From: a virus
Lineage: Duplodnaviria; Caudoviricetes
Length of the DNA: 64,000 nucleotides
Virus record (IMG/VR): IMGVR_UViG_3300034044_000048
Span: 2,245 to 66,244 of that record
Strand: one strand, 5' to 3'
The notes under the pieces were generated by a model, which saw nothing but the letters and a program-made list of their open reading frames with translations, was not told the DNA's origin and ran no database searches. The stretch's first letter is position 1. Every line of letters starts with the position of its first letter. Shown piece after piece: positions 26,877-51,200 of the stretch. The position numbers and the translations under genes were made by a program.

Positions 26877-29800
26877 TAACTTATTAAATAGTGAAAATAC
26901 TCCAGAGAATCCTCATAAAGAATTAGTAAAACAATTTAATGAATCAGTAAGTAGTTCATTTAAAAATGTTTTAGATAAAAAAAGTTATTATACTAAACCT
27001 AAATTTGGAACAACTTCTGAATTTGGTGATTATGATACTTTTACTCATCTTTATGACCATAGTGCTTTTGATAAACTAGGCTTTAACCCTTATAGAGATA
27101 ATGAAAGTTATTATAATGAAAATACAGATTGGTATTCAGATTTAGGAAGAACTACAAGTAATTGGTTTGAATTGGCAAAGTTACCTTTTCAAGAAGTAGC
27201 TGGTACATATACACCTCAACAAGAAGCTTTTTATTATGGAGAAGCTGCAAGGAGAGGTTCAACATCAAGAGGTGGAACTTTTGGTTTTGTTAATGATTTA
27301 TATCTTAATTCAGGTTATACTATTGGTTTAATGGCTGAAATAGGACTTGAAACTTTAGCATTAGCAGGATTAGAAGCTATAACGGCAGGGGGTGCTTCCG
27401 GTTTAGTAGCAGGAAGATTTGCACAAAAAGCTTTTAAATTAGGAAAAGGTTTAACTAAAGGTTTAGGTACTGCTGAAAAAGGAGCAGCTACTATTCAAAA
27501 AGGTTTATCAGTTGCTGAAAAAAGTAAAAAACTAAAAAATACTCTTGAATCTATAAATGCTTTAAAAGATGCTAATAAAGCTAAATCTTTTTGGAACGCA
27601 GAAAGAGCAGGTGGAAAAATTTTAAATACATTAAATCCTTTATCAGGAACCACAGAAATTATAAAAGGATTAAAAAACGGAGATGCTGCTTTAAGCGGGT
27701 TGCCAGGATTAACAAAATCTGCAATTGCTTTTTATGAAGATGTTAGAGATTTAAGGTTAGTTCATTCTGAATCTTTATTAGAATCTGGTTTTGCTATGAA
27801 TGATACCTATGACCAATTATATAAAGAATATGTTGATAAATATAAAAAAGAACCTAGTAAAGGAGATTTAGAAGACATGCAAAAAAAGGCTTTAAATGCT
27901 GGTAGTATGGCTTATTATTCTAATTTAGGTTTGATATATGCAACAAATGCAATTACTTTTAAGTCTATATTTAGAAAATACGGTTATAAATTTGGAGATG
28001 ATACTTTTGATTTTGGAGTTGGTAAAATAAAATACAATAAAGGTAATTTAAAAAAGGGGAAACCTGTTGCTTCTTATGAGGCTAATAAATCATGGAGAGA
28101 ATCAATTAAATCTGGATTTCAAAAAAGTAAAAAATTATTTAAAAAAGAAACATGGACTATTCCAAAATTAAAAAGTTTTACTTACTCAAATGCAATGTCA
28201 GGATTAAAAACTGGGCTAAGCTATACTAAAAAGAATTTTTCAGAAGGGATTCAAGAACTTGGTCAAGAAATTATTCAAGATTTAAGTATTCAATATTATA
28301 AAGATGATTATAATAGAACAATAAGAGGTGGTTATTGGAATTATCTTGCTAAATCAAGTTCTAAATTTTTATCTGGGGAAGGATTAAATGTGTTTGCTTC
28401 CGGGTTTTTTATGGGATCTGTTGTTGGAGGTGTACACGGAATACAAAATAAAATTGTTGAAAAAACTCCAAATATTTATAAAAAAGTTTTTAAAAAAGAA
28501 GATTATGAAAAAGGTATTTTAGATAAAGAAAGAAAAGAAAAACAAATAAAAAAACAAGTTGAGATTATAAATAAAGTTGTATCAGATCCAATAAAATTTT
28601 TTAATAAAATTCATGATGTAGTAGATTTAACTAATGTAAGTAATGAATTAGAAAAAAAAGGTAATGAAAAAAGGATTAAAGAATATATGGATTTAAAAGA
28701 TGAAGAAGATGCCTTATCCTTTTTAAATATCATAAATTCTTCTCAATTTGATAATATTTTAGAAACTTTAGATGAATATAAAAAATTCAATTTAGAAGAT
28801 TTAAAAGAACATTTTGGAGATTCTTATACTGATGAAGATTTAATGGATTTTAGAAATGATATAGATAATAAAAAAGATAAAATTAAAAAATTTAAAAAAG
28901 TTTCTGATTACATTAATGAAGAATTTGAAAATCCATTTGCTGTAGATTTTAATTTAATAGAAGATGAGAAAGAAAAAGAAAAAGCTCAAATAAAATTTAT
29001 AAGCTTTGAAAAAGCAAAAGAAGAAGTGATAAAGAAGCAATATTCTTTAATGAGAACTTTAGATAGACAAAAGAGTTTATATGATAAAATAGTAAGTGAA
29101 TATTCACCTCTTTCTGACAAAGCTTCTTCTATTGATTTTGAAGTATTATTAGATCAAGAAACTTTTGATAAAGAAATACAATTTATAACTGAAGAAATAA
29201 AAAATTTAGAAGAAACAATTAAATATGAATCAAAAAATAAAGATTTAAAAGAAGAATTAAAATATAAAAAAGAAAAATTAGAAAGTCTTAAAAAAATTGG
29301 AGATATTATTCATCAAAAGAACCGTATTTCTGAAATACTTGAAGAGAAAGCTAAAGAATTAAATAAAGATTTAGTAGGAGCCATTGTCAGAACTAAAAAC
29401 GGAACTGTTTCAAAAATAGTAGATAAAGTTTTTAAAAGAAAAGGAGAACCTGTATATAAACTTGAAAATGGATTTCATATATTACAAAATGAAGTTGAAA
29501 AAGTTTTAAAAAGAAATTCTGAAGTAATCAGAGAAGATTTAGAGGTTGATTCATTTAAAGAATTTCAAAAAGCTTTTAATGAATATTTTAATGTTATAGG
29601 TTTAGGTAATAAAAGTTATGAAAAAAACAAATTAATAAATAAAATAACACAAGAAATATTAGATTATAAAGTATTAACATTGGATGGTAAAAATCTTCAT
29701 GAGGAGGTTCAATTTTTATTAGACCCTGAAGGATTTTCTGAACAAGTAGATAGAACTGAAAAAGTTTTTGAATATCATTGGGAAAACAGAAAAGAAGAAA

Positions 29801-34400: not shown

Positions 34401-37400
34401 ACTTTAATTTCTCATTTTGGATTAAATGAAGATAATATATTTGAATCAACAGGGTTTGTTAAATTATACTTAGAAAAATCTATTTTAAACACTTTAGAGG
34501 TTGATTTATCAAAAGAACAATCTTTTTTTGAAAAACAGTTATCAGATAAAGAGGAAAGTCTTTTAGAAAAATTAGATGTTTATACTAAATTTTTATTATC
34601 TATAAATAAAGAAAGAGATGAATATGGTAATTTAGTAAAAGATGAATTTGGAGTACCTAAACTTTTACCTTTTAATGATGCTTATGCATTAATTAAATCT
34701 TTAAGTTATCAAAATAATGATTCTCCTAAAACTATTATAAATAAATTAAAAGAAGAATTATCTAATAATAGAAATTATTGGGTAAAAGAATTAATTGATA
34801 ATTTAGGTGATCCTAATACAGGTGATACAGACTTATTTAGATTACAAAGTAAATTTTGGCAAGACTTTTTTTACTCAAAAACTCCATTAATTCAAACAAA
34901 TATAGATCTTAAAAATCAAAATTCAAATACTCAACAATCAAGAACAGTTGATGTAAAAGTAGGAGAAGCTTCAGCTGTTCATAGAAATTTAGCTAATGAT
35001 ATAACTAGTCATTTTAAAACTGTTAGAAGTAATAGATTTATTAAATTTGTAGAAGGTGTTGGTAATGTTTTAGATACCGATGCTATATTAAAAAAATATA
35101 ATGAAAAATATACAGCTTCAAATAATTATAATGAATTTTTTAAAGATATTGGTTTAAATTTAAGTTATAAACCTGATTTAAAAAATAAAGATTCAGATAT
35201 TTTAAGAGATGCTGCAGGTAGATTTATAACTTTAATTAGAGAAAAAAATAAAATAGGATACCAGATTACAGATATAATTAAAGATTTAAGAGAAAAAACT
35301 ATTTATTATGAAAAAGATGTAAAAAAAGTTTTAGAAGGAGAAAATACTTCTTTAAGAAATGTTTTAAATTTAGAATTAAAAAATTCTATTAAATATGCTA
35401 ATGTAGGATTATCAACTCCAGATGGTAATGTAAAATTTGAAGACCATCAGTTTAGCACTATTGATATTTTAATTAAAGATATTAATAATTTAAATCATTA
35501 TAGTGAAATTTATAAATACCCTCATTTAAGTGAGTTTTGGATTGAAAATAATGATTGGGTTAAAAATTCAGCAATTTTCCATTCCTTATTCATTTGGAAT
35601 GAAAGTTTGCAAACTTTTGAAGATAGAAATAAAAGTGTTAAACTTGAAAAAAAAGAAATATCAGGAACTCAAGTAATTGAAGATGATCATTCTAATTTAG
35701 ATTATAGTGCTAAAACATCAAATGTTGATGAAAGTACCAGAATATTACAAGATATTCATAATGGTCTTTTATTAGGAGCTTTTTCTAACATAACACCATC
35801 TGATAAAGGTACTATAATATCTGTAACAACTAATGTTGTAAGTAGTTATAAGAATGAAGACACAGCCTCAAAAACAAAAAGATTATATGTTGATTATCAA
35901 GGTTTTGGTAAATTAGTTGGTAAACATAATGCTGCAATAGTCAAAGCTGGTAATATAATGATTGGCTATTTAGATGCTGAATTAAAAAGAATAAATAAAG
36001 TTAAAAAACATCAAGAAACAGGTGAAGAATTACCAAATATATTAGGATATACTGTTCCTGATAGTAGAGGAAATATAAGAGGTTTAGAATTTGGTATATT
36101 AGATGATGTTTTAAATTTTAAAAAAGGATTAAAAGAAAAACTTTTAAAATTAGAAAATGCAGACAGTTTAAAATCATTTGAAAATTTAGAGTTGTATAAT
36201 GAATTTTTAGATGCTGTAAATGATTATTTTAATTGGTCTTATGAACAAACACTAGGTGCTATAGAACCTTCTTTATTTTTCATTACTAAAGAAATTTTAA
36301 ATACTGCTAAAAAACAACTTAAAGATTTAGGTTTTGAGAATAAAGATTTAACCTTAGAAGCTTTAAGAAGAGTAGCATTAAAAACTTATGTTGTTAATTC
36401 TTTTTTACATCATGCTGAAAATTTTATTTTTTCTTATGGAGATTTAGCTCAGTATAAAGATATATTTAAAAGAAATTATGCTTTCCAATCTCAAGGTAAT
36501 ATGCATAGAACAGATCAAGAAGCTGTTGATTTTGTAAATGGTGTATTAGGAAGACCTTTTGAAAAAAAATATAAAAAAGAAAAAGGAATTGATGAACCTA
36601 TTAGAAGATATGATAATAAATTAAATACTGTTGTTTTTGAAGAAGTTACTGTTCAATCTGAATTAATAGGTGTTAATGATGATGGTTCATATAAAGAATA
36701 TACAAAAGCTGTAATAGAAGATTTAATTGAAAGAGGATATTCAAAAGAATTAGCTATTGAGATTGAAAAGATTGTAAATAAAGCTTATTATTCAATGGAT
36801 GAAGGAGATGCTGGTGCTTGCCTTAATTTTGATACTTATAGAATATTAAGTTATTTAAATGATTCTTGGAGTGATAAGCAAGAAGAATTATATCAAAAAA
36901 TACTTAATAATCCTGAAGAAATTTTAACAACAGACATATTAGAATATTTTCCTCCAAGAAAGTTTCAATATTTTGGAGCTTTAGAAATGAGTAAATTTAA
37001 TGCTAAAGCTTTACATAAGTATTCTTTATTTCCATTAATACCAACTGTAATTAAAAATACTAATTTAGAAAGGTTATCTGAAATAATGTATGAACAAGGT
37101 ATTGATTATGCAACTTATGAATCAGGATCAAAAGTTAGTACTATTGTACCAAAAGGAAAAAAATCAGGAGAAACTCTTTATTCAGATTTAAAAAATAGAA
37201 TTTTAGAAAGTAGAGAAAATGGAGAACCTTTAGTTAAAAATGTTATATATACTCATTTTTTAAAAGATCAATTAAAAATAAATTCTAAATTTAAAAAGAA
37301 AACAATATTTTCTACACAATTAAGAACTTTAATAGAAGACTCATTAATTGAAAATGGTATTCCTGTTGATTTTGAAAAAGATTTACCTTTTTTTGATAGA

Positions 37401-40400
37401 AAAGAAAAATGGGAATCTTTAACTGAATTAGAAAAATTTAAAAAATCTTTTTTTTACTCAAAGTTTAGAAGATACGAAAATAAAATTTCTAAATATATTG
37501 AAGTTCAAAAAATATTATTAAAAAAAGAATTAGGACTTTATGATCAAAACTCAGATAAAACTAAATTGGTTTCTGTAATAAAAGAAGAGTTATCAAGAGA
37601 AGATTTAGCTGAACACGAATTAGATTTTATTAGAGTTGATGAAAATGGCAAATTAGATATTGATTTATCTTTTTCACCATCTGCAGCAAAAATAGAAAGA
37701 ACTTTAAATGCTATTGTTAATAACAGAATAGTTAAACAGAAAATGAAAGGGGAATCTTTAGTACAGGTTCCTACCACTTTGTTTGAACCAAGAAAAGCAA
37801 CACAAGCTGAAAAAAAGAAGTATGGTGCAACTAATGATATGAAAAGTTACACTAAAGATCCAAAAACAGGTAAAACAAATGCTGCAGAATTTAAAATAGC
37901 TTTACAAGGAGATTTTAAAAAACTTTTACATCTTAAACACAAAGATGGAAAAAAAATAATGGTATATAAGAAAAGAATTTATACAAAACCAGATGGTACA
38001 ACCAAATATATAAAAGAAGTTGATCAAAAAGAAAGTTTAAAAAGATTAAATGAAACTATTCAAGATGCTGAATGGAGAAGTAAAGAAGAAAATAAAAGAT
38101 TAATTTCAATGATTGGTGTTAGAATACCTGTACAAGGTTTAAATTCAATGGAACACATGATTGTTTGGGAATTTTTACCAGAAGAAGCTGGTAATATAAT
38201 TATCCCTCCATCAGAAATAGTTGCTAAATCAGGTGCCGATTTTGATGTTGATAAACTTACTGTTCTTTTTCCGGGATTAGAATTAATAAATGGTGAAGTT
38301 CATTTTATAGAAGATACTAATGATTCATCTAGTGCACAAGAATCATTAGACAAAGTAGAATCATTAAAGGAAAAAATAAAAGAATTAGAAAAACAAAAAA
38401 ATGATTTAAGAAAAAAATATTCTTTAGAATATTCAAAAATATCAAATTCTGAATTAACTGAAAAACAAAGGTTAGAGAGAAATGAAATATTGAAACCTTT
38501 TTATGATGAATCAGATGAATTAGAACCTTATGCTGACTTAATAGAATCGCAAATTGATAAATTAGAATCTATAAAAAATAAATCAAAAAAACAACAACAA
38601 AAGTTAGAAGAATTATATGAACAATATGATGATATAATGAATAAAATAGATGATTTATATGATAGATTTGAAAAAGCTAAAAAAGAAATAGGTAAAAAGT
38701 TTTTTGAAGAAAAGTTTAAAAAGTTTGAAGAAACAAGAGATGCTGAGTTAAATCCTGTTTTAAATGAACTTAAATCATTAAAATTAGAAACACTTTCTAA
38801 TAGCACAAGTGCAATTCAAAATTCAATATTAATTGAAATGAGAGATATATTGAGTTTAGAATATAATTTTTTAAATTTAATAAGACCTAATAGTACTGAT
38901 TTATTTACAAGTGGGGGAGGTATTGTAGATGAGATGTCTACATATAAAGATTCTTATTTTAAATCTACATCGCCAACAAGAGCTTTAGAACCAAAGAAAA
39001 ATGCAAATGTTCATGCAAGAAACTCTATTGGTAAAAGTACTTTAGGTATATCTGCTAATGCAAATGTCTTTAATACATTGTTAAATAGAATTGGTGCTGT
39101 ATTAAATCATTCTTATAGAACTAAAAAAGGTGAAAAAAGAAAAGTTTTTATAAAATTAAATCATAATAAAATAGGAAATAATATTTCATTAAGTAATATA
39201 TTTTCTAAAGATGGTGTTAGAATATCAGATATAATTAATCAATTAATGAATGGTTATGTTGATATTGCAAAAGAAGATTGGGTATTTGATATAAATGCAG
39301 GTCAAGAAGCTGCACCAACTTTATTATTTTTAATTATGGCAGGGGTTCCTTATAAAGAAGCTATTTATTTTTTATCAAATCCTTTAATTAAAGAATATAT
39401 AAAAGAAAGACAAAACTTAGCATCAAGTTTTAGTAAAGCTACTGGTTATTCAGCAGAATCTATTGTTTTTAATAAAAATAAAGCAAAATTTAACATTTTA
39501 TCAAAATTTGAAGAATTAGAATTTGTTTTAGACTATGATAAATCATCAGTTAAACAAGGAAAGTTATATAACTATACATATAATAAATTAAAAAAGGTAG
39601 ATACTTTTGATGTAGAAAGAATAGGAAAAATGTTTTTTGAAGAAGCTTTAGATGATGAAGAAGCTTTATTAGGGTTTTTACATTTTTTACAATTAGAAGA
39701 TATAGGTAAGCATTTAAACTATTTTAGAAAAGCTGTTAAGCTTGATACTGTTAAAAATACAACTTTATTTGATGCTATTAATAAAGAAAATGAAATCAAA
39801 AAATTAAGTGAAGTTGGTTTACTTGATGAAAGTTATATTAAAAAAGCCTTTGAAGAAACCCCAACTGGTAAATTTAGAGTTGGTCCATATCAACTTGAAT
39901 TATGGCAACCTTTATTTAAAATAAGAACACATCCAAGAGTTACAAGTTATTTAAGTGATGTTTATGACACTTATAAATTTAATAAAGATGTTAGAATGAC
40001 ATTTAACGATGAGGAAAAATACATAGAAGAATTTAAAAATGATTTAATAATTGCAATTTTTGAAAATAGTTTATTACCAAAATCAGAATCAATATTAAAT
40101 GAAGGTTCTTACAAAGGTGTAGAGATTATTAAAACAGATGAGGATTTATTAATAGAATTATTTGAAGAAGATGAGGAAATTAAGTTTAAAATAAATTTAG
40201 AAAAATTAAAAGAAGCTTATGATAAATCTTTATTTTCTGAAACTAAAAGTTCATTAGAAAATAGTTTTGATAAGTTAGGTTTAAACTCTTTACCTTTATA
40301 TACTTTTTCTGATGGGTACTTTGATTCTTTTTTTAATTATATGTTAGAGCTTACTTATTTAAGATATGATTTTCATATTGATTATTTAAAACATACAAGA

Positions 40401-43298
40401 TTATTTAATCAAGAATATGCAAAACATTATAACCAAATTGAAGATTTAGAAAAAGATGATCAAATAAACTTTGTTTATGAAAAACTTATATCAAAATTAG
40501 CTTTAAATAGAACTTTAAATCCAAGAAAAATATTTAAAAGTTCTGAATCTTTAGCAAATGAAATCTTTGAGTTAATGGATATTTACCCAGAATTAAAAGA
40601 AAAATATTATTTGCTATCACAATTAAAAATTTCAAGTACTAAAACTGATGATTCTAAAAAAATTAAAATAACCAATTTAGCATTAATTGATACAAAAGTT
40701 GATTCTGATATTTATAAGTTAATGAACTCAAATATGTTAGATTTAATGTCTGAAGATAACATATCAGTAAACGATAGTCCGGAAGGTGTTGATATTACTT
40801 GGTTTGAAAATAGATTAGTTGCTGAATATTTTAAAACTTTACAATATGCTGCTTTTATGCAATCTGGTTTAAATACTAAAGACTTTTTATCTTTAATAAG
40901 AATAATGGATCAATCTTTAATAGCTAAAGAATTAGACAATGTAAATATTGATTCGCTATTTTACAGACCAAATTTTTTTAAGGGATATAGCTCTTTATTT
41001 TATAATAATAATTCAATTAATAATGTTGCAAATAGAAAGAGATTTAAAAACTATTTTGATTCTATACTGTTTCATGGAATGTCTAAATCAAAAAGTGTTA
41101 ATACATCTGATGAAGAATCTTCTATTGATGAATCTTCAGTTTTAAATCCTGAAGATTTTGTAAATCATTCTGGTGGAGCCTATGGAGCAGATACATTATG
41201 GGACATTATAGGAAGAGAATTTGGAGTAACTGATCATAAGCATTACAGAGATAAAGAAAACTCTAATTTATCAAAGAAATTAAAAAACATCACTAATGCT
41301 ACTATTTTAACAAAAGATCAAATAAATGAAAGTAGAGAAAAAGTAAATAAATTACTCAATAAAAATTATAAAGATGATATACAAGGTAATTTACAAAGTC
41401 GTAATTATTACCAAGTTAAAAATGCAGATGCTGTATTTGCTATTTCTAAATTAAAAAACAATAAAAGAGAAGTTTCTGGAGGAACTAATACTGCTGTACA
41501 ATTAGCTATTATTATGGAAAAACCTGTTCATGTTTGGGATGTAAATACTGAAAAATGGTACACATATAAAAATGGAAAATTTGTTGAAGAAGATACACCT
41601 ACTTTAACAAAGAATTTTGCAGGTGTAGGTACAAGAGATATAGAAAATTATAATACATTTAATAAAGCTACTAAAAAATGGGAGTCTAGAGAACAATATG
41701 TTGGTGATGAAAAAGCCAAAAAGGCTGAGCAAGCTATAAGAGATGTATATGAAAAGACATTTAATAAAAAGTCATCACAAACTACACCTACATTACAAGA
41801 TGTATCAGAGTATTCAAATGGTAAAACAGAAAGTCCTAATGTTGTTATTCCAAAAAAGTCTTCTAAAATACAACCGCCTAAAGGTACTATTAATGTGTAT
41901 TGGGGACAAAGCGAATCAGAAAAATCTACAAGAATATTATCAAATCTTGCACCAAGAAAATTTACTTATACTAGTACAGATGGTATAGAAAGAGAATATG
42001 GTTCTGTCGAACATGCTTATCAATCTAATAAAAATGGTAAATTTGATAAAGCTGTATATGATGCTTATATTAAAAAGGGGGGATATGGTGTAAAAATATC
42101 TCCTAAATTAACTGAAGTTGGTAAGAGGGGTAATTTACAACTTATGAAAGATTTAGTTGTAGAATCTTTTATACAGAATCCTAATTCAGAAGCAGCCAAA
42201 AAATTATTAATGTATGAAAATTTTACTCATAATACTAATCAATTAATTGATAAAGCATTTTTAGAAGGATTAAAACTAGCACAAAAAGAATTATTTGAAA
42301 TAATAAAAGAAATAAATAAAAATGTTGATATATCTGATAATAAGACTTTTAACACTAAAGTGTCTATAATAGATAAATATGATGTTAATATAGTTAAAAA
42401 TAATCCTGATAAAATTTATATATTTGGAGATAATGTTGTAGGTAAAGGTAAAAAAGGACAAGCTATAATTAGAGATGAAGAAAATTCTTTTGGTATTCCT
42501 ACTAAAAAATTACCATTTACTTCTGAAGAATCTTACTTTTCCGATAAAGAATTTAAAGAAAACAAAGAGTATATTGATAAAGCTATAGATAAAATAAAAA
42601 AGGATGGAAGAGAAATAGTATTTCCGAAAGATGGTATAGGAACAGGATTAGCTAAATTAAAAGAGAAAGCTCCTAAAACTTGGGAATATTTAAATAAAAA
42701 GTTATTAGATGAATTTGGATTTAATAATGAAACAGGTGAAGTTATAAGACAACAATCACAAACTCAAGAAACAACACAACCTGTATCAGAAACACTGACA
42801 GGCAGAATACAAAAAAAATACCCAAAAGAAATTGAATGGGAAACTTTAGCTGGAAAAGCCGATACTAAAAAATTACAAGAAATTGCTAATTTAAAACCTA
42901 ATAAAATAGTTCCTTTTAAAAAGGGTACACCTTATGGGGATATTGTAGAGAAATTATATGGAAAACACGCAGCAAGATATGTAAGAGATACAGAATCAGA
43001 ACTTTCTGAAAATGAAGGAGAATTTTTAAGAGATAATCCGGAATTTGCTAAAAACTTTATATCAGATTTTTTAGAATCTGAATTAGGAGAAGGCGAAACA
43101 ATGCAATCTTTTGCTAAGAAATTACTTGAAAAATATGTAATTAAAATAGATACTTTTCAAACTTCATTGTTTGATAATTATTATGTATCAGAAATACTAA
43201 CAGAAAGTGGAGATACTATAGAATCATTAGGAATAACCCAAGAAGAATGGGATAACTTAACCCAAGAAGAAAAAGATAATATTATTAAATGCGGATAA
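31494..43298 (+). CDS. Giant virion-packaged RNA polymerase polyprotein (zincin + crAss-type RNAP + SLOG + NADAR-like + macro-like domains)
   Basis: RIPVQG (~38121) and SGADFDVDK catalytic motif (DFDVD 38238-38252); HESWH zincin motif at 33696-33710. The ATG at 31494 after an A-rich leader is preferred over the TTG at 31470. Confidence 0.85.
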   Translation: MNCALTPKKLENLYIYNFKILLKYTNDDKKEFNLKEHIKSIYDSIYNKSKDSNLATLYAQQVPRMTVLAISNDRELSKTIRKKGLDVAELYDFDDRYEDFEEVIKDLSNDSDQSVKEEDVESIRDEIKETAKRKQTNPKPEGTPEDIEKEEDKKESNKKEIKRDIYSAKPSTALALTGQEEKFNEETGLWEEDPEKSFYYDFLRLIFDKSNDGYIDAENLKIGNHKGFKIKVISKSKLPIDKAMPDEQELFKNEPSRMPDYEKGIGAFITDLEGNILYFDKNYNTVSKEEGMPIYFNLRTPIKNEDGSFYLMKAKIQTPEEILNNELRNGGFDVAEYKKEYPELYKQSLKEIYNVQQEELKQISKIRNALNEDKNKEFLLKINAVSRGMLNYSYNSYEDPNNINWDKSDVSFNPVKIINDGDVRPGEFKGGIFLRIPGQRSIRLQSKNISDKDINIILELLFNPDLKLNNKPLSFDMRKHLLETLVYTNKNSFQLIKSSDKFIVKVEGKLIDITSEKSLLEAKEKVKEILTKPYSKNSSFNTIYGIYNFKTNDKNNIDEVVSIKDNKVELKEVPFDVYAKSHTLLKINLSNKSEKTLKYANNYLMFSVEGEIVKEEEERKEEEGKEGIKKSDTSQKKIAKIKNPTIKKERKKIVRRKREKITRKKKDHLEANKKILLKNSKKQIDKAKKWFDNSELSKYIKLEDLTSIINSEAWAKFKDSAITLYKGSNYTLLYHESWHAFSQQFLSKTEQITLYKAFEKTRLGKDLIERKTEEEERELTEEEKYLVLEEYIAEDFREFMIYGTSELYDNKKVKSIFKRILNFLKSIFTKEGRFKLKIKKYFNDLKTGNFKQYDQSQLNYYFTGKDLHARFEPVEGVEEDYNISEDDTIRLIKSTDSLLLSLIHEENIKVKSSKFLMSVLQNPKKNLPFFMDKVYDKLIDRYNELIEELETIENDNEYLILDEKVNALETLISHFGLNEDNIFESTGFVKLYLEKSILNTLEVDLSKEQSFFEKQLSDKEESLLEKLDVYTKFLLSINKERDEYGNLVKDEFGVPKLLPFNDAYALIKSLSYQNNDSPKTIINKLKEELSNNRNYWVKELIDNLGDPNTGDTDLFRLQSKFWQDFFYSKTPLIQTNIDLKNQNSNTQQSRTVDVKVGEASAVHRNLANDITSHFKTVRSNRFIKFVEGVGNVLDTDAILKKYNEKYTASNNYNEFFKDIGLNLSYKPDLKNKDSDILRDAAGRFITLIREKNKIGYQITDIIKDLREKTIYYEKDVKKVLEGENTSLRNVLNLELKNSIKYANVGLSTPDGNVKFEDHQFSTIDILIKDINNLNHYSEIYKYPHLSEFWIENNDWVKNSAIFHSLFIWNESLQTFEDRNKSVKLEKKEISGTQVIEDDHSNLDYSAKTSNVDESTRILQDIHNGLLLGAFSNITPSDKGTIISVTTNVVSSYKNEDTASKTKRLYVDYQGFGKLVGKHNAAIVKAGNIMIGYLDAELKRINKVKKHQETGEELPNILGYTVPDSRGNIRGLEFGILDDVLNFKKGLKEKLLKLENADSLKSFENLELYNEFLDAVNDYFNWSYEQTLGAIEPSLFFITKEILNTAKKQLKDLGFENKDLTLEALRRVALKTYVVNSFLHHAENFIFSYGDLAQYKDIFKRNYAFQSQGNMHRTDQEAVDFVNGVLGRPFEKKYKKEKGIDEPIRRYDNKLNTVVFEEVTVQSELIGVNDDGSYKEYTKAVIEDLIERGYSKELAIEIEKIVNKAYYSMDEGDAGACLNFDTYRILSYLNDSWSDKQEELYQKILNNPEEILTTDILEYFPPRKFQYFGALEMSKFNAKALHKYSLFPLIPTVIKNTNLERLSEIMYEQGIDYATYESGSKVSTIVPKGKKSGETLYSDLKNRILESRENGEPLVKNVIYTHFLKDQLKINSKFKKKTIFSTQLRTLIEDSLIENGIPVDFEKDLPFFDRKEKWESLTELEKFKKSFFYSKFRRYENKISKYIEVQKILLKKELGLYDQNSDKTKLVSVIKEELSREDLAEHELDFIRVDENGKLDIDLSFSPSAAKIERTLNAIVNNRIVKQKMKGESLVQVPTTLFEPRKATQAEKKKYGATNDMKSYTKDPKTGKTNAAEFKIALQGDFKKLLHLKHKDGKKIMVYKKRIYTKPDGTTKYIKEVDQKESLKRLNETIQDAEWRSKEENKRLISMIGVRIPVQGLNSMEHMIVWEFLPEEAGNIIIPPSEIVAKSGADFDVDKLTVLFPGLELINGEVHFIEDTNDSSSAQESLDKVESLKEKIKELEKQKNDLRKKYSLEYSKISNSELTEKQRLERNEILKPFYDESDELEPYADLIESQIDKLESIKNKSKKQQQKLEELYEQYDDIMNKIDDLYDRFEKAKKEIGKKFFEEKFKKFEETRDAELNPVLNELKSLKLETLSNSTSAIQNSILIEMRDILSLEYNFLNLIRPNSTDLFTSGGGIVDEMSTYKDSYFKSTSPTRALEPKKNANVHARNSIGKSTLGISANANVFNTLLNRIGAVLNHSYRTKKGEKRKVFIKLNHNKIGNNISLSNIFSKDGVRISDIINQLMNGYVDIAKEDWVFDINAGQEAAPTLLFLIMAGVPYKEAIYFLSNPLIKEYIKERQNLASSFSKATGYSAESIVFNKNKAKFNILSKFEELEFVLDYDKSSVKQGKLYNYTYNKLKKVDTFDVERIGKMFFEEALDDEEALLGFLHFLQLEDIGKHLNYFRKAVKLDTVKNTTLFDAINKENEIKKLSEVGLLDESYIKKAFEETPTGKFRVGPYQLELWQPLFKIRTHPRVTSYLSDVYDTYKFNKDVRMTFNDEEKYIEEFKNDLIIAIFENSLLPKSESILNEGSYKGVEIIKTDEDLLIELFEEDEEIKFKINLEKLKEAYDKSLFSETKSSLENSFDKLGLNSLPLYTFSDGYFDSFFNYMLELTYLRYDFHIDYLKHTRLFNQEYAKHYNQIEDLEKDDQINFVYEKLISKLALNRTLNPRKIFKSSESLANEIFELMDIYPELKEKYYLLSQLKISSTKTDDSKKIKITNLALIDTKVDSDIYKLMNSNMLDLMSEDNISVNDSPEGVDITWFENRLVAEYFKTLQYAAFMQSGLNTKDFLSLIRIMDQSLIAKELDNVNIDSLFYRPNFFKGYSSLFYNNNSINNVANRKRFKNYFDSILFHGMSKSKSVNTSDEESSIDESSVLNPEDFVNHSGGAYGADTLWDIIGREFGVTDHKHYRDKENSNLSKKLKNITNATILTKDQINESREKVNKLLNKNYKDDIQGNLQSRNYYQVKNADAVFAISKLKNNKREVSGGTNTAVQLAIIMEKPVHVWDVNTEKWYTYKNGKFVEEDTPTLTKNFAGVGTRDIENYNTFNKATKKWESREQYVGDEKAKKAEQAIRDVYEKTFNKKSSQTTPTLQDVSEYSNGKTESPNVVIPKKSSKIQPPKGTINVYWGQSESEKSTRILSNLAPRKFTYTSTDGIEREYGSVEHAYQSNKNGKFDKAVYDAYIKKGGYGVKISPKLTEVGKRGNLQLMKDLVVESFIQNPNSEAAKKLLMYENFTHNTNQLIDKAFLEGLKLAQKELFEIIKEINKNVDISDNKTFNTKVSIIDKYDVNIVKNNPDKIYIFGDNVVGKGKKGQAIIRDEENSFGIPTKKLPFTSEESYFSDKEFKENKEYIDKAIDKIKKDGREIVFPKDGIGTGLAKLKEKAPKTWEYLNKKLLDEFGFNNETGEVIRQQSQTQETTQPVSETLTGRIQKKYPKEIEWETLAGKADTKKLQEIANLKPNKIVPFKKGTPYGDIVEKLYGKHAARYVRDTESELSENEGEFLRDNPEFAKNFISDFLESELGEGETMQSFAKKLLEKYVIKIDTFQTSLFDNYYVSEILTESGDTIESLGITQEEWDNLTQEEKDNIIKCG

Positions 43299-43321: not shown

Positions 43322-46300
43322 ATGGCAAATTGTATAAATAAATCACTTCCTGAATTTAAAATTCTTGTTCAAAAAACAGGAATGAATAAACATATATTGG
43401 CTGCTAAAATAGCTATATGGCAAGATAAAAATAATACATTAGGTGTATTTCCAACAATAGAACAAATAATTGGTGATAACTCTACTAAATTAACAAATGT
43501 ATCTAATCAAGAAAGACTATATCAAAAAGGTTATATTAATGATAACTTAAAAGAAACTGAATTTGGTATTAGAGATTTAGCAGCAAGATTAGCTAATAGA
43601 ATTGGTGGAGAAGTTGAATTTATTTCTGATTTAACAAAAGATTTTTCTGGTTATAATGAAGGTAGTAAATATGTCATCAACTTAGCCAAAGCCACTTTAG
43701 ATACACCTATACATGAAATAGTAGGACATCCTATTATTAGAGCTATTAAAGATAATAAAACTATTAAAGACAACTATAAGGAATTACTGGATTCTGTTGA
43801 TAATATTGAAGGTGATTTTACTACTTATGAGAAAATAAATGGAAAATGGTATAGTGTATTTAATGGTATCAATGGAAGGGAATTAACTAAAGAAGACCCT
43901 AACTCTGATTCTTTTAAAACTGTAGTAAGAAATGCCAAATCTTTAAAAGACAAGTTTAAAAAAAGAGAAGAGTCTGAATTATATCAAAACTTACTAAAAG
44001 AACTTGAAACAGGTTATGGTAAAGAAGTATTAGATAGAATTAAAAAAGAGTATGTTTATAAAGAAATTAGTACTTCTTTACAAAATGAATTAAATGATGA
44101 GGATGATTTTGATTTTGATATAGCTAAAGAACTTGAAACTAAAACTTTAAATGGTAAAAAATATATACACAGAATACAAGATAATATAGGAAGATGGTAC
44201 GAACAAGTACCAATGTCTTTAGAAGAACAGCAGGAAGAGGCATTAGTACAATTATTAGGAGAACTTACAGCAGGGAAAATAAAAGAAACTAAAGAAAATA
44301 AAAATCTTATTAGTTTACTTAAACGGTTGTTAAAAGAAATGACTGCTTACATGAGAAGTTTATTTAACTCTAAAGAAATAGAGATAGATAAATTATCAGC
44401 AGATATGACATTAAACGACTTAGCTAATTTACTTGCTTATACGAATAGTAAAATTATATTACCTGGAAGTAGAGTTGAATATACTACTCCTGATAATAGT
44501 AAATTTAGTACTTATCAAGAAGCAAGTAATCATATTAGTAAATTGTTTAAAGAAAGTAAAGATGTTGATTTAAGTGATGTTGGTTTAGATTTAAGAAAAA
44601 AAGTAAATAATAGTATTGAAATTCCTGTTTCTAAATTTACAGATGAATTTACAAATGATGTATTCATTAAAAAAGACAATAGTTGGTACTATGAAAATAC
44701 TGACAAAAAAGTTGATGATGCGTTAATTATTCACACATGGAATAATAATATTTCTGATAATGTAATAGGTAAATCCGGAGTAGAAGGTTTTATAGAAAAA
44801 AATAAACCATTTGAACAATCTAAAGAAATAATAGAAATTTGGAAGAAAGAAAATAATATTAAATATAATCCTGAAGAAGTTTATTCAAGAGGGCAAGGTT
44901 TTTATTCTTCTATTGGTGCTTATAGTACTATAGAGTTAGATTTACTTTTACAAAATTTATTACACCATATTGAAGATAACAAAAAAGCTAGTGGTAAATT
45001 TGCTATATCTGCATTTACTAAACCTGTTGGTAAAAGAATAAAACATTTAGAAGGAGAATCTTCTGTTAGATTTAAAATATACCCTAAATCAGAAGATATA
45101 TTATGGGCAGCACCTACTGATGTATTTAGTGGAAGTGTATGGGATGCTAGTGAAAAAGTAAGTAAGAATAAAAAATCTGAATTACTAGGTGTATCTCATA
45201 CTAAAGCTCCTTCTTTAAATAATATCAATGAGGTAAGCCCTAATCTTGCCGATATTATTGATAAAAGAAGTCATGATCATAATGAATTGGGAATTGAATT
45301 AACTCATACTAATTTTAGATTAGAATATGATGAAACAGTTCCTTATGAAATTAAAAAACTTGTTAATTCTATTAATAGTATTTTAGATAGTAAATATGGT
45401 AAAATAGTTAAGCCTGAAATTAAACAAAAAGGAGAAAAAATAATACAATATGGTATATTTAGTGAAGGTGCAAATGATATATTAGACTGGTTTGATACAA
45501 AAGAAGAAGCTCAAGCTAAGGTTGATGAATCTAATCAACAGCTTATAGATTTAGGACTAAATCCTGATTTTAGTGTCAAACCTATTACCAAACCAATAGG
45601 TATCCAACCAACTAAAACTAAAGAAAATACTACAAGTATTGAGAGTGTTAAAGACAAGGTATTAAGAAATACTGATAAATATGTATTACAGCAACATGGG
45701 GATAAATTTGTAATATATGATATTGAAGAACAAGAACCTTTAGATATTTTTGAGAATAAAGAAAATGCTTTAAAAGAAATTAAAAAATTAACTGGACAAG
45801 AAAGCTTAAAAGAAAAAGAATACACTTCTCAAGCATTAACTAATACTAAAATAGCTATGCTTAAAGAAATAGCTAAAAAATACCCAAGAAGTTTAATTAC
45901 AAGTAAGGTAGTTAATAATCAAAGTAGTGAAAGACAGTATCAAAAAAATAAAAGAACTAAAGATGTATTTAATCAAAAAGAATTTAAAAATCAAGTTAAT
46001 TATTCATTAAAAACTGTTGATATATTATCTTCTGATAAAGCCAAACAAGTATTTGCTAAAGGAGAAAAGAATGGCTGGAGTTTAAATAAAATTCTAACAG
46101 AACTTCAAATACCTAAAGAACAAAAACAAATTATATTAGATAAGAATATAAAAAATCCTAATATACTTAACAGTAAAGAAGAGTTAGATAAAATAGCTAA
46201 TAGTAATTCCAGATTATCTAAAGTTGCTAAATTAATAGCTAATAAAATTTCAAGTGCTACTAATAGAATAGTTTATGCAGATTTTAATATTATTGATAAA

Positions 46301-47299
46301 AGTAACGCAGCCGGAGTAGCATATAGTTCTTTAGAAGATGGAATATTAAAAACAGATGTAGGATTAAATAAAAGTACTATAGAACAAGTAATTAAATATA
46401 GAAAAGATTTATCTGATTTTAAAGAAGAAACTATAGTTCACGAAGAAATACATAGATTTACTCAGTTATTATTTCAAATAGATAGAGTAAAAGGCGATAA
46501 AACATTAAAAGAAATAGGATTTAGTAAGGCTGAAATAGATTTTGTTGAAGAAGTAAAAAGTTTATATTCTCAATATAAAGCTACTAATAATACTAATAAT
46601 GATTTTAACCAACCTAATACTTCTATTGAAGAATTTATTACTTATGGTTTAACTAATGGTGAGTTTATTAAACACATATCTAAAATTAAAGTAAAAAATA
46701 CTACTGTATTAGAAAAATTAATATCTATACTGACTAAACTTTTTGGAAATGATATTTCTATTAAACAAGCATTAGATAAATCTTTTGAAGATTTTATGTT
46801 AGCAGATACCATATTAGAAGAAATATCTGAACAATCAGATTTTTTAAAACCTGATAATTTTAACCTAAGAGAAGAAATAATCACATCTTTATTAAATGAT
46901 GTTAATAAATTTAAAAATTTAAAAGATAATAGATCAACATTAGAAAAGGAATTAAAATTTAATTTTAAATCTTTTAAAGATGAAACAGAAGAAAATAAAA
47001 ATATAGAAGGTTTAAGATTAAAAATTGATCATTTTGAAGTAATTAAAAATGAAGATGGTTATTTTTATAATAACGGTAATGAAATTACAGATGAAACAAT
47101 AATTAATAAATTTGAAATTAGAAAAGAATTAAGAGAAGGTAAATTAAGAATTGGAGAATATAATAATAATAATTATTTTGTGCTATCAAATGGTAAGATA
47201 TTAGGCTCTGGTAAAACTAATTTAGGTAAAGAAACAATCTCAGATCCTAAAATAAAAGAAGAGATTTTAAAAAATGCTATTAAATATAAAAATTGTTAA
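43322..47299 (+). CDS. Large polyvalent-type cargo protein with two zincin-like motifs
   Basis: HEIVGH (43712-43729) with downstream EEALV, and HEEIH (46439-46453) with downstream EEFIT. Confidence 0.65.
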   Translation: MANCINKSLPEFKILVQKTGMNKHILAAKIAIWQDKNNTLGVFPTIEQIIGDNSTKLTNVSNQERLYQKGYINDNLKETEFGIRDLAARLANRIGGEVEFISDLTKDFSGYNEGSKYVINLAKATLDTPIHEIVGHPIIRAIKDNKTIKDNYKELLDSVDNIEGDFTTYEKINGKWYSVFNGINGRELTKEDPNSDSFKTVVRNAKSLKDKFKKREESELYQNLLKELETGYGKEVLDRIKKEYVYKEISTSLQNELNDEDDFDFDIAKELETKTLNGKKYIHRIQDNIGRWYEQVPMSLEEQQEEALVQLLGELTAGKIKETKENKNLISLLKRLLKEMTAYMRSLFNSKEIEIDKLSADMTLNDLANLLAYTNSKIILPGSRVEYTTPDNSKFSTYQEASNHISKLFKESKDVDLSDVGLDLRKKVNNSIEIPVSKFTDEFTNDVFIKKDNSWYYENTDKKVDDALIIHTWNNNISDNVIGKSGVEGFIEKNKPFEQSKEIIEIWKKENNIKYNPEEVYSRGQGFYSSIGAYSTIELDLLLQNLLHHIEDNKKASGKFAISAFTKPVGKRIKHLEGESSVRFKIYPKSEDILWAAPTDVFSGSVWDASEKVSKNKKSELLGVSHTKAPSLNNINEVSPNLADIIDKRSHDHNELGIELTHTNFRLEYDETVPYEIKKLVNSINSILDSKYGKIVKPEIKQKGEKIIQYGIFSEGANDILDWFDTKEEAQAKVDESNQQLIDLGLNPDFSVKPITKPIGIQPTKTKENTTSIESVKDKVLRNTDKYVLQQHGDKFVIYDIEEQEPLDIFENKENALKEIKKLTGQESLKEKEYTSQALTNTKIAMLKEIAKKYPRSLITSKVVNNQSSERQYQKNKRTKDVFNQKEFKNQVNYSLKTVDILSSDKAKQVFAKGEKNGWSLNKILTELQIPKEQKQIILDKNIKNPNILNSKEELDKIANSNSRLSKVAKLIANKISSATNRIVYADFNIIDKSNAAGVAYSSLEDGILKTDVGLNKSTIEQVIKYRKDLSDFKEETIVHEEIHRFTQLLFQIDRVKGDKTLKEIGFSKAEIDFVEEVKSLYSQYKATNNTNNDFNQPNTSIEEFITYGLTNGEFIKHISKIKVKNTTVLEKLISILTKLFGNDISIKQALDKSFEDFMLADTILEEISEQSDFLKPDNFNLREEIITSLLNDVNKFKNLKDNRSTLEKELKFNFKSFKDETEENKNIEGLRLKIDHFEVIKNEDGYFYNNGNEITDETIINKFEIRKELREGKLRIGEYNNNNYFVLSNGKILGSGKTNLGKETISDPKIKEEILKNAIKYKNC

Positions 47300-47302
47300 A
47301 AT

Positions 47303-48259
47303 ATGGCAGGAACATGTAACATAAAAAAAGAAATTAGAAAAAAAGTTAATAAAGAAATTTATGAAATTTATAAAAATTATGAAGTATTAAACTCTTTTTC
47401 TAAAGCAACTGAATTAAATAATAAAATTAATAATTTATATAATTACAATATATCAAAGATAATACCTATAGATGATAAATTCAAAGTAGCAATAAAAGAA
47501 AACAATTTGGAAAAAGTTATTGAAGAAAAAACAATAAAACAAATTTCTTTACAAGAAAAACTTGAAAAAACACATTCCTTTTTAAAAGATGATTTATTTG
47601 TATCTAATAAAACATCTAAAAAAAATAATATTAAGGAAGAAGTTAAAAATGACAAATATTCATCTAAATTATTACTTGAATCAATTAAAAAGCATTATGG
47701 AGATGATGCTTATGAAGTGAGAAGAAATCTTATTGAAGATATTGGTAATATTTTTAAAGGTAATGCTAATTCAATAGTGATTAATGAAGAATTTCCATCA
47801 TTAATAACTGTTAATTATAATAAAAGATTTAGACCTAAAACTGATAAACAAGCTAAAGCTATGTTAATTTCTAATATAGAAAGGGTTAGAAAAAGAATAT
47901 CTGAAAAGTTAGGAGATAAAGTTAAAGCGGACCAATGGATAAAATTTGGATTTAATGGAAATAATCATTATGTTTCAATTAACATTCCTAATAATTTTCT
48001 AGTTTTTATTAATGAAGAATTTGAAAAATATTATATAGAAGAAGAGCATAAAATAAATAATACTAAAACATTTACAGGTAGAAATTTAGATTATTTTAAT
48101 AATGATGAAGCTTTATATGAACAAGAAGAACTTAATTTAAATAATTTAACTAAATTAGAAGTTTTAAATAATTTTACAAAAAGTGAATGGTCTAAATTGA
48201 CTTATAAAGAAAAAAATAAAATAAACAAAGAGGGAACAAAAGATGAAATGTGCGATTAA
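47303..48259 (+). CDS. Hypothetical cargo protein with terminal cysteines
   Basis: 318 aa; MAGTC start, MCD end; C-terminal motif resembles that of the RNAP polyprotein. Confidence 0.55.
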   Translation: MAGTCNIKKEIRKKVNKEIYEIYKNYEVLNSFSKATELNNKINNLYNYNISKIIPIDDKFKVAIKENNLEKVIEEKTIKQISLQEKLEKTHSFLKDDLFVSNKTSKKNNIKEEVKNDKYSSKLLLESIKKHYGDDAYEVRRNLIEDIGNIFKGNANSIVINEEFPSLITVNYNKRFRPKTDKQAKAMLISNIERVRKRISEKLGDKVKADQWIKFGFNGNNHYVSINIPNNFLVFINEEFEKYYIEEEHKINNTKTFTGRNLDYFNNDEALYEQEELNLNNLTKLEVLNNFTKSEWSKLTYKEKNKINKEGTKDEMCD

Positions 48260-51200
48260 AACAGATGCTGAATTTATTCAGTTACAAGAAGAGCTTAAAA
48301 TTGATAAAAACAGCTTATTGGTAAGAACTGCTTTATGGATTAAAGAAAACAATTCAGACAGATACCCAACACCTAATGAATTGAAAAAGTTTTATGAAGA
48401 TAATTTTGATGTAATTCCTTTTGAAAAGGCTGTTAAAGACTTTTTTAATGAGAAAAAACAAACTATAGAAAAATCAGAAGATTTTTTAATTGAGTTTAGC
48501 TCTAAATTGACTTCTAATTTAGGTCTGAAAAATAACATAATTGAATTTATAACACCTGAAAATGCAAAAATATTAACTCAAGATAGTAAAAATCCATATA
48601 CAAATCAAAAATCTTTTTTTTATAAAGGGAAAATCTATTTTGTTAAAGGCAATTTTAATTTTGAAACTGTTATTCATGAGTTTTCACACATTTTTGTTAA
48701 AGCTATCTCAATTGATAATGAAAAATTATTTAATAAACTTTTTGATGATATAATAAAAACAGATAAAGGTAAATTATTTTTAAAAGAATCCTTAGAAGAA
48801 TATCCAGGTCTTACAAAAAACCACTCTCAAATAAAAGAAGAAGTTATTGTAAAAACAATTACTGATTATCATTTAAATAATTCTAATGAAACTAAAAATA
48901 TTATTGATAGAATTATTTTTGCAATAAAACAATTAATAAGAAAAATATTTAAAGTTAATCCTAAAAATCTTTCATTAAATACATCAATTAAAGAATTATC
49001 TGAACTAATAGTTGATGGTTCTTGGAATGTAAACATGAATGTAATATCAGATTCTAATATTGTTTCTTATTTAAGTGAATACAAAGAAAGATATAAAAGT
49101 TTTAAAAAAGCTTTTGAATCAGAAGAAGGTAGAATGGCTATATTGCATCAATTAACTCTAAATTCTAAAATAGTAAGAAATCAATTAAAAAGATTATCTG
49201 AAACTGAAGACAATATAAAAGAACAATTAACAGAAACTTTCACTACACTATCAGATGAGTTTTTATTTGATGTAATGCAGTCTAATATAGGAAAACAATT
49301 AGATAGTAGAGAAAAAATAAAATTAGCAGCTTCAGAAAAAATTGATGAATTAAAAGAGTTTGAGAAAAAAATTGAAGCTCTTGCTTTTAATTTAGATACT
49401 TTAGATGAGATGTTAATAAATATAGAAAGTGATATAGCATATATGAAAACATCTCCAGGTTATATAGAAAATTTAAAAAAGACTGCTTTTTATGATGAAA
49501 GTTTAGACCAATGGATTAAATATTTAGAAGAATTTAAACTCAATTTAGAAGATTCAAATGTTAGCATAGTATCTGCTCTTTATAAAGATATATCTGAACT
49601 GCAAGATAAGGCTACTATTTTAAAAAGAAAAGCTAAAAAAATATATGAAAAAGGTATGGGAAAAACTTTAAGTGAAGTTTTTGAACCTACTAAAGATAAA
49701 ATGCTTGAACATTTTAATGAACAAATAGCAGAAAAAGAAAAACAATTAAAAAAAGTTAAAAAAGGTACTAAAGTATATGATCTTTTAGTTAAAGATATTG
49801 AAGGTTTAAAAAAAGTTATTGAAAGAATTAATATTGATCCAGAAGAAATGATAAAACATTTAACTGGTAAAAAAGGAGATATTGGTTTTTTACATGCATA
49901 TCTTGAAAATTTCTTATCAAATCAAGATCCTTCAATTGCTTCATTTGCTTTATTTGTCAAAGAACATTTGAGTAATACACAAGCTAAAGTTCATAATGAT
50001 TATTCAGAATTTCTTACAAAAATATCACCTAAGTTAAATAAACTAGGAGTAAAACCTTCAGAAATGTCAAAATTTGCTAAATTGTTTTTATTTACTGATA
50101 AAACTTATAAGTATAATGATGATGGAGAAATTGAAGAATTTGAAGTTTTAACTTATTTAAATGAATATCAGAATTATAAATATACATTAAAGAAAATTAA
50201 TCACGAATTAGAAAAAGCTAATTTAAATTATGATAGAAAAAGAACTCCTGAAAATTTAAAAAAACTTGAAGAAATTCAAAAGTTAAAAGACACACATCTT
50301 GATTTGTTTTTTAAAAAGAAATTTGTTGATGAATTTTATCAAGCAAATAAAATATTAGATAATTCAAAATATGGAGAAGAATTAAAAAATGAAATAGAAA
50401 GAATCTTTTCAGAAATTAGAATGTATCAAAGTTCACATCCAGATCCTCATGTTGTTTATGATGATTATGAAATAGTAGAATCTTTATTATCAGAATATAA
50501 ATCTTTATTTAGTTTACATGACAAATATGGTAATAAAAAAACAGGTGAAGAGTTAGAAAAAGCTGAAATTTTAAACAAATGGAGAAATGAGAAAAATAAA
50601 TTTTATAGATGGGAAACTAAACATGGAGCTTTTAAATCTGCTTATGAGAATTTTATAAAAAAATTAGAAATCAGTTTAGAAAAACAAAATATTAAAAAAG
50701 GTTCTGAAGAATGGGATATTGAGTACAATAAACAAAAAAAAGAATGGGAAAGATTAAATCTTTCTACAAAGATAAAAGATTCTTTTTATGAAGAAAGATC
50801 TAAAATATTAAGTTTAATAAATGAAATATTAGGAAGAGAAGAACAAGATCTTCCGGAGTATTATGAAGACATTATTGACAATTTAAATCCTGAAAAAGAT
50901 TCTGATGGTATTCCTAATGGAACCATAATGACAGAAGAAAAATTAAAAAATATTTTAGAATTAAATAAAAAAGCTGAAGAACTAAGAGAAATTTCATCAC
51001 AAAATACTTTATCTTTTTCAGAAAAAAAAGAATTAAATTTATTAATTAGAAAATTAGCAAGCGGTAAAACATTAACTGAAAAAGAAATAAAAAGAAAAAA
51101 AGAATTAGAACAAAAAAATAAACCTTTAAGTAAAGCTTTAAAAACTCAATTAAATATTTTGTATCAAAAGTTAAATAAATTACAAGAAAGAACACCAACT

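Follow-up and report, generated by a model that had tools for sequence, protein, structure and literature searches.

Why would the virion RNA polymerase of a phage end in a string of small domains, one of which belongs to a family known to remove ADP-ribose from DNA? The question is raised by a 64-kb part (positions 2,245 to 66,244; hereafter, the window) of the 66,244-bp IMG/VR virus record IMGVR_UViG_3300034044_000048, which has approximately 25% G+C and an estimated completeness of 55%. A giant open reading frame (ORF) of the window, P0001 (31470..43298, plus strand; 3942 aa, no internal stop), encodes a crAss-like virion RNA polymerase (RNAP) followed by a C-terminal multi-domain tail in which SLOG, NADAR and DUF7831 domains succeed one another. 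The answer that we favor, with slightly better than even confidence, is that this tail is a polyvalent, co-injected device that would reverse ADP-ribosylation of nucleic acids as a form of counter-defence.

The polymerase body was recognised only by means of a dedicated profile. Searches of the PDB, PHROGs and Pfam with the whole protein gave no match to it: the first ~3200 residues of P0001 match nothing in Pfam or PHROGs, and phmmer found no counterpart in the PDB either. The profile, A3, was built by aligning the stretch 1631-2866 of P0001 to its counterparts in the giant ORFs of three IMG/VR relatives (L006-L008) that are ~25% identical. Compared with the PDB, A3 retrieves the DNA-dependent RNA polymerase gp66 of phage phi14:2 (6vr4_A; E 1.1e-55, 192 bits), outlines a two-barrel, gp66-like catalytic core region (36360..40067, plus strand) and aligns the DFDVD of P0001 (aa 2257-2261; nt 38238-38252) with the DFDID of 6vr4, that is, the catalytic DFDxD motif common to both proteins. 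On this profile evidence, the body of P0001 is a crAss-like virion RNAP of the gp66 family, as an earlier note on this sequence had proposed. The two polymerases share a homologous catalytic core and differ in what surrounds it: compared with the 2180 residues of gp66, P0001 has ~1600 extra N-terminal residues and a ~720-residue tail.

Within the tail, the earlier note had discerned three segments, and the motifs on which it relied are found where it placed them, all in this one ORF: HSGGAYGAD at aa 3233 (nt 41166), LSNLAPRKF at aa 3490 (nt 41937), YIFGDN at aa 3650 (nt 42417) and GIGTGLA at aa 3722 (nt 42633). Sequence and fold searches resolve the last ~720 aa into separate folded domains, SLOG, NADAR and DUF7831, and the identities of all three segments are far beyond chance. 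In the AlphaFold2 model of the SLOG and NADAR segments, the mean predicted local distance difference test score (pLDDT) is 87.4; both domains are mostly above 90, with values above 92 throughout SLOG, and they are joined by a linker (41772..41855, plus strand; model residues 212-239) with pLDDT below 50. The description of the linkers as rich in Ser, Thr, Gln and Pro holds in part for this Ser/Thr/Pro/Lys-rich stretch, which is predicted to be disordered, but not for the spacer between NADAR and DUF7831, which is not notably rich in Ser, Thr, Gln or Pro.

The first domain (41139..41765, plus strand) matches phrog_768, a PHROGs family labelled 'DprA-like', with E 3.4e-14, and its model retrieves 3imk both in Foldseek (probability 1.00, E 0.011) and in the VIA structure search (Z 12.7, 146 aa aligned, root-mean-square deviation (rmsd) 3.5). 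The next VIA matches are DprA, YpsA, TM1055, MCP, ShosA and LOG at Z 7.5-5.2, among them DprA 3maj (Z 7.5) and YpsA 2nx2 (Z 7.2). Pfam contributes a weak match to cpYpsA (E 0.014, 15.6 bits, cut-off 26.2), and a sequence search of the PDB with the tail alone returned nothing meaningful. Taken together, the profile match and the modelled fold identify this segment as a SLOG superfamily domain of the DUF2493/YpsA/MoCo-carrier-like clade. It is not a DprA as defined by Pfam: DNA_processg_A (PF02481) is absent from the Pfam matches of the window at E<=1, the DprA structures rank below 3imk, and 'DprA-like' is the label of the PHROG only.

The second domain (41868..42335, plus strand) is, by its fold and the profile matches of its relatives, a NADAR of the phage (gp30.3/AdfN-like) type. 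The window copy scores below the cut-off of Pfam NADAR (PF08719; E 0.045-0.07, 13.8-14.4 bits, cut-off 35.1), whereas 9 of its 10 aligned relatives match the same family at E<=0.1 (best 7.7e-8); three of the 10 also weakly match Phage_30_3, the Pfam family of T4 gp30.3. The structural matches are clearer. VIA places 8bau (Z 11.0, 132 aa, rmsd 2.9), 2b3w (Z 10.9, 141 aa) and 8bat (Z 7.0), along with the SLOG match 3imk, well above the remaining rows for the two-domain model, and Foldseek returns 2b3w and 8bau with probabilities of 0.98 and 0.95. Against PDB sequences, the NADAR profile A1 reaches YbiA and 8bau at E ~0.8 only.

The residues on which NADAR activity depends can be traced in the window copy. 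In characterized NADARs, a catalytic Glu is followed seven residues on by a phosphate-binding Lys (E43/K50 in PnNADAR, E36/K43 in T4 AdfN; PMC11543638, PMC11825919). The same Glu-x6-Lys pair is kept here as SVE(3514)HAYQSNK(3521) (Glu3514, nt 42009-42011; Lys3521, nt 42030-42032), and both positions (E52 and K59 in alignment A1) are at least 90% conserved. A third residue, in the last strand, is reported as Glu in YbiA, Asp in DarG1 and His in the phage gp30.3 type (PMC11543638, PMC11125620). The candidate here is His3587 (nt 42228-42230; H125 in A1), which is invariant in A1 and lies in a Thr-His pair just after the last strand of the model (E361-363), where it may take the part of this third residue. 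The observation in the earlier note that a clear WG motif is missing is accurate and extends to the NADAR clade of the window, in which I-D-K stands in place of the MWGE retained by the relatives P0027 and P0028. Beyond these motifs, the domain (compared over window 41877-42347, L006:9268-9738, L007:10001-10462 and L008:10001-10546; nucleotide identity 74-78%) is 70-80% identical to its copies in L006-L008, against only ~25% for the polymerase bodies, an excess that points to either recent exchange of the module or very strong constraint; the third positions of conserved NADAR codons are 69-70% identical, a value that does not discriminate between transfer and selection at 25% GC.

The third domain (42357..42743, plus strand) had been read as macrodomain-like. 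It belongs to the Pfam family DUF7831 (PF25176; E 9.5e-37, 125.9 bits, cut-off 27), a small alpha/beta domain in which two loops, FGDN..GKGKKGQA and DGIGTGLA, are rich in Gly, and keeps all 15 invariant columns of the family; its AlphaFold model has a pLDDT of 92.1. A literature search found no paper that mentions DUF7831, and all clusters retrieved from the ESM Atlas were themselves DUF7831. The macrodomain reading survives in the structure comparisons: in a wide VIA search, 7 of the 10 top rows carry macro or X domain titles (Z 5.3-4.4; DarG 5m3i, Z 4.0), and in a second search against the PDB, macrodomains fill the first 11 rows, with ADP-ribose-bound TARG1 at the top (2l8r, Z 5.9). The tool itself cautions, however, that Z values in this range (4.0-5.9, at an rmsd of ~4 A) do not suffice to establish a common fold. 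The reading finds no counterpart at the level of profiles or in Foldseek, which returned nothing from the PDB at E<0.3: none of the 43 DUF7831 members matches Pfam Macro (PF01661) at E<=10, and PF01661 has no match in the whole 66-kb record, though 8 of 14 control genomes do match it. By eye, the motifs FGDN..G.GGQA and GIGTGLA resemble the loops of macrodomains, and the invariant Asn of the GDN motif of DUF7831 may correspond to an Asn of macrodomains. Given these models, we regard 'macro-like' as a plausible lead. The weak structural matches also include the SLOG domain of ThsA.

Three other affiliations of DUF7831 were tried and rejected. Dual-specificity phosphatases ranked first in Foldseek (E 0.3-2, TM-score ~0.25-0.3) but reached only Z 2.5-3.0 in VIA. 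Alignment of the DUF7831 profile A2 with the SLOG profile A5 in hhalign gave a probability of 0.2, which speaks against a divergent SLOG. Searched against PDB sequences, A2 matches only one local loop of triosephosphate isomerase (E 0.07), which we take to be a common phosphate-loop motif and not a sign of homology.

Comparison of the C-terminal domains of RNAPs among relatives, which the earlier note had recommended, showed that SLOG, NADAR and DUF7831 recur in varying order, and that L006-L008 have NADAR alone: their giant ORFs stop right after it, without SLOG and DUF7831. An exhaustive search with the SLOG domain yielded 1327 homologues at E<=1e-3 and 135 of this clade at E<=1e-30, and about half of the 150 best representatives (77) are at least 2000 aa long, so that the module is widespread. 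Scanned with local hidden Markov models (HMMs) built from alignments made here, these 150 include 55 with the RNAP core, 17 with this NADAR, 18 with DUF7831 and 3 with both NADAR and DUF7831; SLOG alone was seen in 75, a count to be read with the caveat that the RNAP profile comprises four sequences and is bound to overlook remote cores. The domain orders include SLOG-NADAR, NADAR-SLOG, DUF7831-SLOG-NADAR and SLOG-DUF7831, with the module lying either C-terminal or N-terminal of the polymerase. Small proteins that lack the polymerase also carry SLOG-DUF7831 (P0250, P0261) or SLOG-NADAR.

Two occurrences merit separate mention. The gut phage cr130_1 (L001, Suoliviridae, NC_055901.1) has a 17.4-kb gene (gp79) with 'DprA-like DNA recombination-mediator protein' as its sole annotation; the product is a giant protein of the polymerase type that ends in a SLOG-NADAR-DUF7831-like tail. 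When this gene is read with translation table 11, in-frame stops appear, consistent with the TAG recoding described in some crAss-like phages. Another occurrence of this SLOG clade is at ~aa 970-1250 inside the N4-like single-subunit virion RNAPs (vRNAPs) of two Schitoviridae, Klebsiella phage Pylas (L002, 5950-6600) and Alteromonas phage vB_AemP_PT15-A5 (L005, 4001-4465), with 36% and 29% identity. To judge from the sequences, this is an independent recruitment of SLOG onto an unrelated injected polymerase.

DUF7831 extends beyond phages, to the giant eukaryotic viruses Yasminevirus, Tupanvirus and Hyperionvirus, and is present in other crAss giant proteins. Its fusion partners were surveyed in the 56 longer DUF7831 proteins (273-2000 aa). 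Twelve are family B DNA polymerases (P0337, P0339, P0341-P0343, P0345-P0351) that carry the domain as an insertion separating the exonuclease from the polymerase part (e.g., aa 367-482 of P0343). The others include four PIF1/RecD-like superfamily 1 helicases, two SNF2-type helicases, three AlkB-like 2-oxoglutarate-Fe(II) oxygenases and single fusions to RNase HII, PRA-PH and DUF488-N3a; a SLOG recognised by Pfam occurs in 4 of the 56 proteins and this NADAR, by the local HMM, in 7. The prevalence of enzymes that track or repair DNA among these partners suggests that DUF7831 acts on DNA.

What is established directly here is which domains the tail contains, how they fold, that their catalytic residues are conserved and that they recur together in shuffled order; on this basis, the mechanism that we favor for the tail can be outlined as follows. 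The polymerase would be packaged in the capsid and would enter the cell along with the DNA, and because it is co-injected, the tail domains would be in place before any phage gene is expressed. For gp66, packaging in the virion, translocation into the cell and transcription of single-stranded (ss) DNA have been reported (bioRxiv 10.1101/2020.03.07.982082), and the RNAP-associated proteins of crAss001 are described as capsid cargo by mass spectrometry and as ejected partly unfolded (PMC10172136); by homology to gp66 and to these cargo proteins, the tail of P0001 would be delivered with the virion. There, as independently folding domains on flexible linkers, SLOG would bind or cleave nucleotide or ADP-ribose derivatives, and the NADAR glycohydrolase would remove guanine ADP-ribose placed on single-stranded phage DNA by putative DarT1-like host toxins. 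SLOG and DUF7831 would most likely handle related adducts or the breakdown products of ADP-ribose in a division of labour, with DUF7831, to judge from its fusion partners, acting on DNA and not on free signals. The counter-defence role is extrapolated from the known activity of phage NADARs: T4 gp30.3 (AdfN) and two other phage NADARs are reported to strip guanine ADP-ribose and to defeat DarTG1 (PMC11825919). The form of DNA proposed as the NADAR substrate, ssDNA, is also the template form used by gp66-class polymerases. Indirect support for tethering the domains to an enzyme that tracks along DNA comes from the fusions of DUF7831 to DNA polymerase B, helicases, AlkB-like oxygenases and RNase HII.

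Several points weigh against this interpretation. The NADAR of the window, at 14 bits against a cut-off of 35.1, falls under the Pfam threshold, and its C-terminal half is without WG; the likeness of DUF7831 to macrodomains is weak (Z<6). The tail might also be lost by cleavage or, once ejected, not regain its fold. Furthermore, the YbiA NADAR is described as acting in the metabolism of riboflavin intermediates and in swarming (PMC11125620), AdfN of T4 is reported to work only in a T-even context, and Iyer et al. 2022 hold that phage Macro, NADAR and SLOG domains mainly counter soluble ADP-ribose derivatives (PMC9503650).

This last point leads to the main rival explanation, under which the tail would not repair DNA at all but would degrade soluble immune signals or toxins derived from NAD+ or ADP-ribose, such as the cyclic ADP-ribose isomers of Thoeris-type systems or ADP-ribose-1''-phosphate, with SLOG cleaving or sequestering the signal and NADAR and DUF7831 processing the products. 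Although we consider it rather unlikely for the tail as a whole, this explanation is hardest to dismiss for the SLOG domain, the closest structures of which are SLOG proteins that bind or cleave ligands (3imk, YpsA, LOG). It is, moreover, the published reading of phage SLOG/NADAR/Macro combinations (PMC9503650, PMC7824862), it can point to the ThsA SLOG among the weak matches of DUF7831 and to the DUF7831-DUF488-N3a fusion, and for DUF4326, a relative, processing of ribose-linked phosphates has been predicted (PMC9503650). What argues for DNA as the target instead is that, according to PMC11825919, every phage NADAR assayed so far acts on guanine-ADP-ribose in DNA, that the partners of DUF7831 are mostly DNA-tracking or DNA-repair enzymes, and that a few copies tethered to a polymerase would be ill-suited to clearing a diffusible signal.

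The domains could also serve the polymerase itself, a DprA-like SLOG binding the ssDNA template or promoter while NADAR and DUF7831 process RNA 5' ends (e.g., NAD caps) or reverse ADP-ribosylation on early transcripts. DprA structures do match SLOG at Z 7.5-6.7, gp66 transcribes ssDNA, one SLOG clade occurs in two unrelated classes of virion RNAP, and the removal of ADP-ribose from RNA has been reported (PMC11833690). We nevertheless judge such a service improbable, given that SLOG-DUF7831 and SLOG-NADAR proteins exist without a polymerase, that the order of the domains and the side of the polymerase on which they lie vary, that the close relatives L006-L008 do without SLOG and DUF7831, and that the window has no Pfam DprA match. 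A mainly structural tail, consisting of decayed, inactive domains that act as a packaging, spacing or ejection element, would accord with the conserved Cys motif at the extreme C-terminus, which looks like a targeting or anchoring signal, and the C-terminal part of the N4 vRNAP is needed for encapsidation. Decay is difficult to reconcile, however, with the retention of all family-invariant residues in the window copy of each domain and with the NADAR identity of 70-80% against ~25% for the bodies, a disparity that speaks for either strong constraint or a recent exchange, and we regard this last explanation as very improbable.

The favored reading, reversal of nucleic-acid ADP-ribosylation by a co-injected tail, can be taken a step further, into territory where we would sooner doubt than believe. 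DUF7831 might be a minimal macro-like de-ADP-ribosylase of nucleic acids (acting, e.g., on thymidine-linked ADP-ribose) that was repeatedly recruited to DNA-tracking enzymes; with NADAR and SLOG, it would make a self-cleaning polymerase that clears its own template, the terminal Cys marking packaging or anchoring. The analysis thereby offers a functional hypothesis for a family that is common to phages and giant eukaryotic viruses. The phage NADARs known to beat DarTG1 do so only as free early proteins, whereas an enzyme arriving with the genome would act before transcription; a genome-borne NADAR, if real, would close the time window for DarT-type toxins. Since Crassvirales dominate the human gut virome, injected removal of ADP-ribose may be a common strategy in the gut.

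Beyond DUF7831, P0001 ends in a region (42801..43295, plus strand; ...IIKCG) that has no assigned function and shares ~37% identity with the C-terminal end of the L009 giant ORF; it also resembles an internal stretch of P0192, and its last ~25 aa give weak matches to DUF7167/phrog_8831. For the remaining tail of the L009 ORF, the PHROG match is phrog_16227 ('virion structural protein', E 1.8e-126). The C-terminal Cys (window 43281-43295) has counterparts within the last 5 residues of all 7 other giant ORFs examined (L001, L003, L004, L006-L009) and of 53 of the 77 SLOG-bearing representatives of at least 2000 aa, where 0.6 would be expected at a Cys frequency of 0.15%; when the count is repeated, as a control, 50, 100, 200 and 500 residues before the end, 1, 1, 2 and 0 proteins have a Cys. 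The conserved terminal Cys may be a signal for packaging, anchoring or covalent attachment; a literature search on crAss and C-terminal cysteine gave nothing relevant among the best 10 of 71 matches.

P0001 starts with TTG and overlaps the 3' end of the preceding 1543-aa ORF. This ORF (26845-31476) and two others that flank the polymerase gene (43322-47299, 1325 aa; 48243-53813, 1856 aa) match no family in either Pfam or PHROGs; they probably represent the other 'transcription block' or cargo proteins of crAss-like phages. PHROG scans of ten large neighbouring ORFs matched only DNA polymerase and virion structural protein families, so that the placement of the phage in Crassvirales comes from the polymerase only.

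How does this tail compare with known systems? Polyvalent virion proteins built on the N4 vRNAP, SLOG+Macro+NADAR combinations in DNA viruses and counter-defence by phage NADARs have all been published already. Cargo of this kind on crAss-type polymerases was not found in main texts among the matches listed (the best 15-20 per search), although such architectures may already appear in the supplements of Yutin 2021 and Iyer 2022, and this SLOG clade was likewise not found in N4-like vRNAPs in the main texts; in the KP8 paper, DUF2493 and ADP-ribosylglycohydrolase figure only as small early genes that are separate from each other.

The NADAR shares with T4 AdfN (gp30.3) and other phage NADARs the NADAR/YbiA fold, a Glu and a Lys seven residues apart and the phage-encoded state, and probably also the His where YbiA has Glu and DarG1 has Asp (PMC11125620). 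It differs from AdfN, a free early protein, in being a minimal domain of ~130 aa without WG that is fused to a 3942-aa virion polymerase. With the macrodomains of DarG and TARG1, which remove thymidine-linked ADP-ribose from DNA and provide the best structure matches of DUF7831, the third domain has in common two Gly-rich loops after beta-strands, but it is without sequence or profile similarity to them, smaller (~125 aa) and poorer in strands, with Z<6. The SLOG/Macro/NADAR/DUF4326 sets described in DNA viruses (PMC7824862, PMC9503650) likewise combine SLOG and NADAR in one polypeptide that is predicted to be early, and are reported to be spread over phages and giant eukaryotic viruses. There, the phage versions of Iyer 2021/2022 are typically stand-alone proteins, and no crAss phage figures in them ('crass' has 0 occurrences in PMC9503650); here, the third partner is DUF7831 and not a recognisable Macro or DUF4326.

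The overall design is closest to the polyvalent virion proteins of Iyer et al. 2017 (PMC5512222), in the main text of which SLOG and NADAR have 0 occurrences: in both cases, a giant protein delivered with the virion strings together conflict domains, and a virion RNAP can be the carrier. Whereas the N4-like vRNAP fusions of that study carry ADP-ribosyltransferase, lysozyme, RNase or peptidase domains, in P0001 an unrelated, two-barrel RNAP of the crAss type carries SLOG, NADAR and DUF7831.

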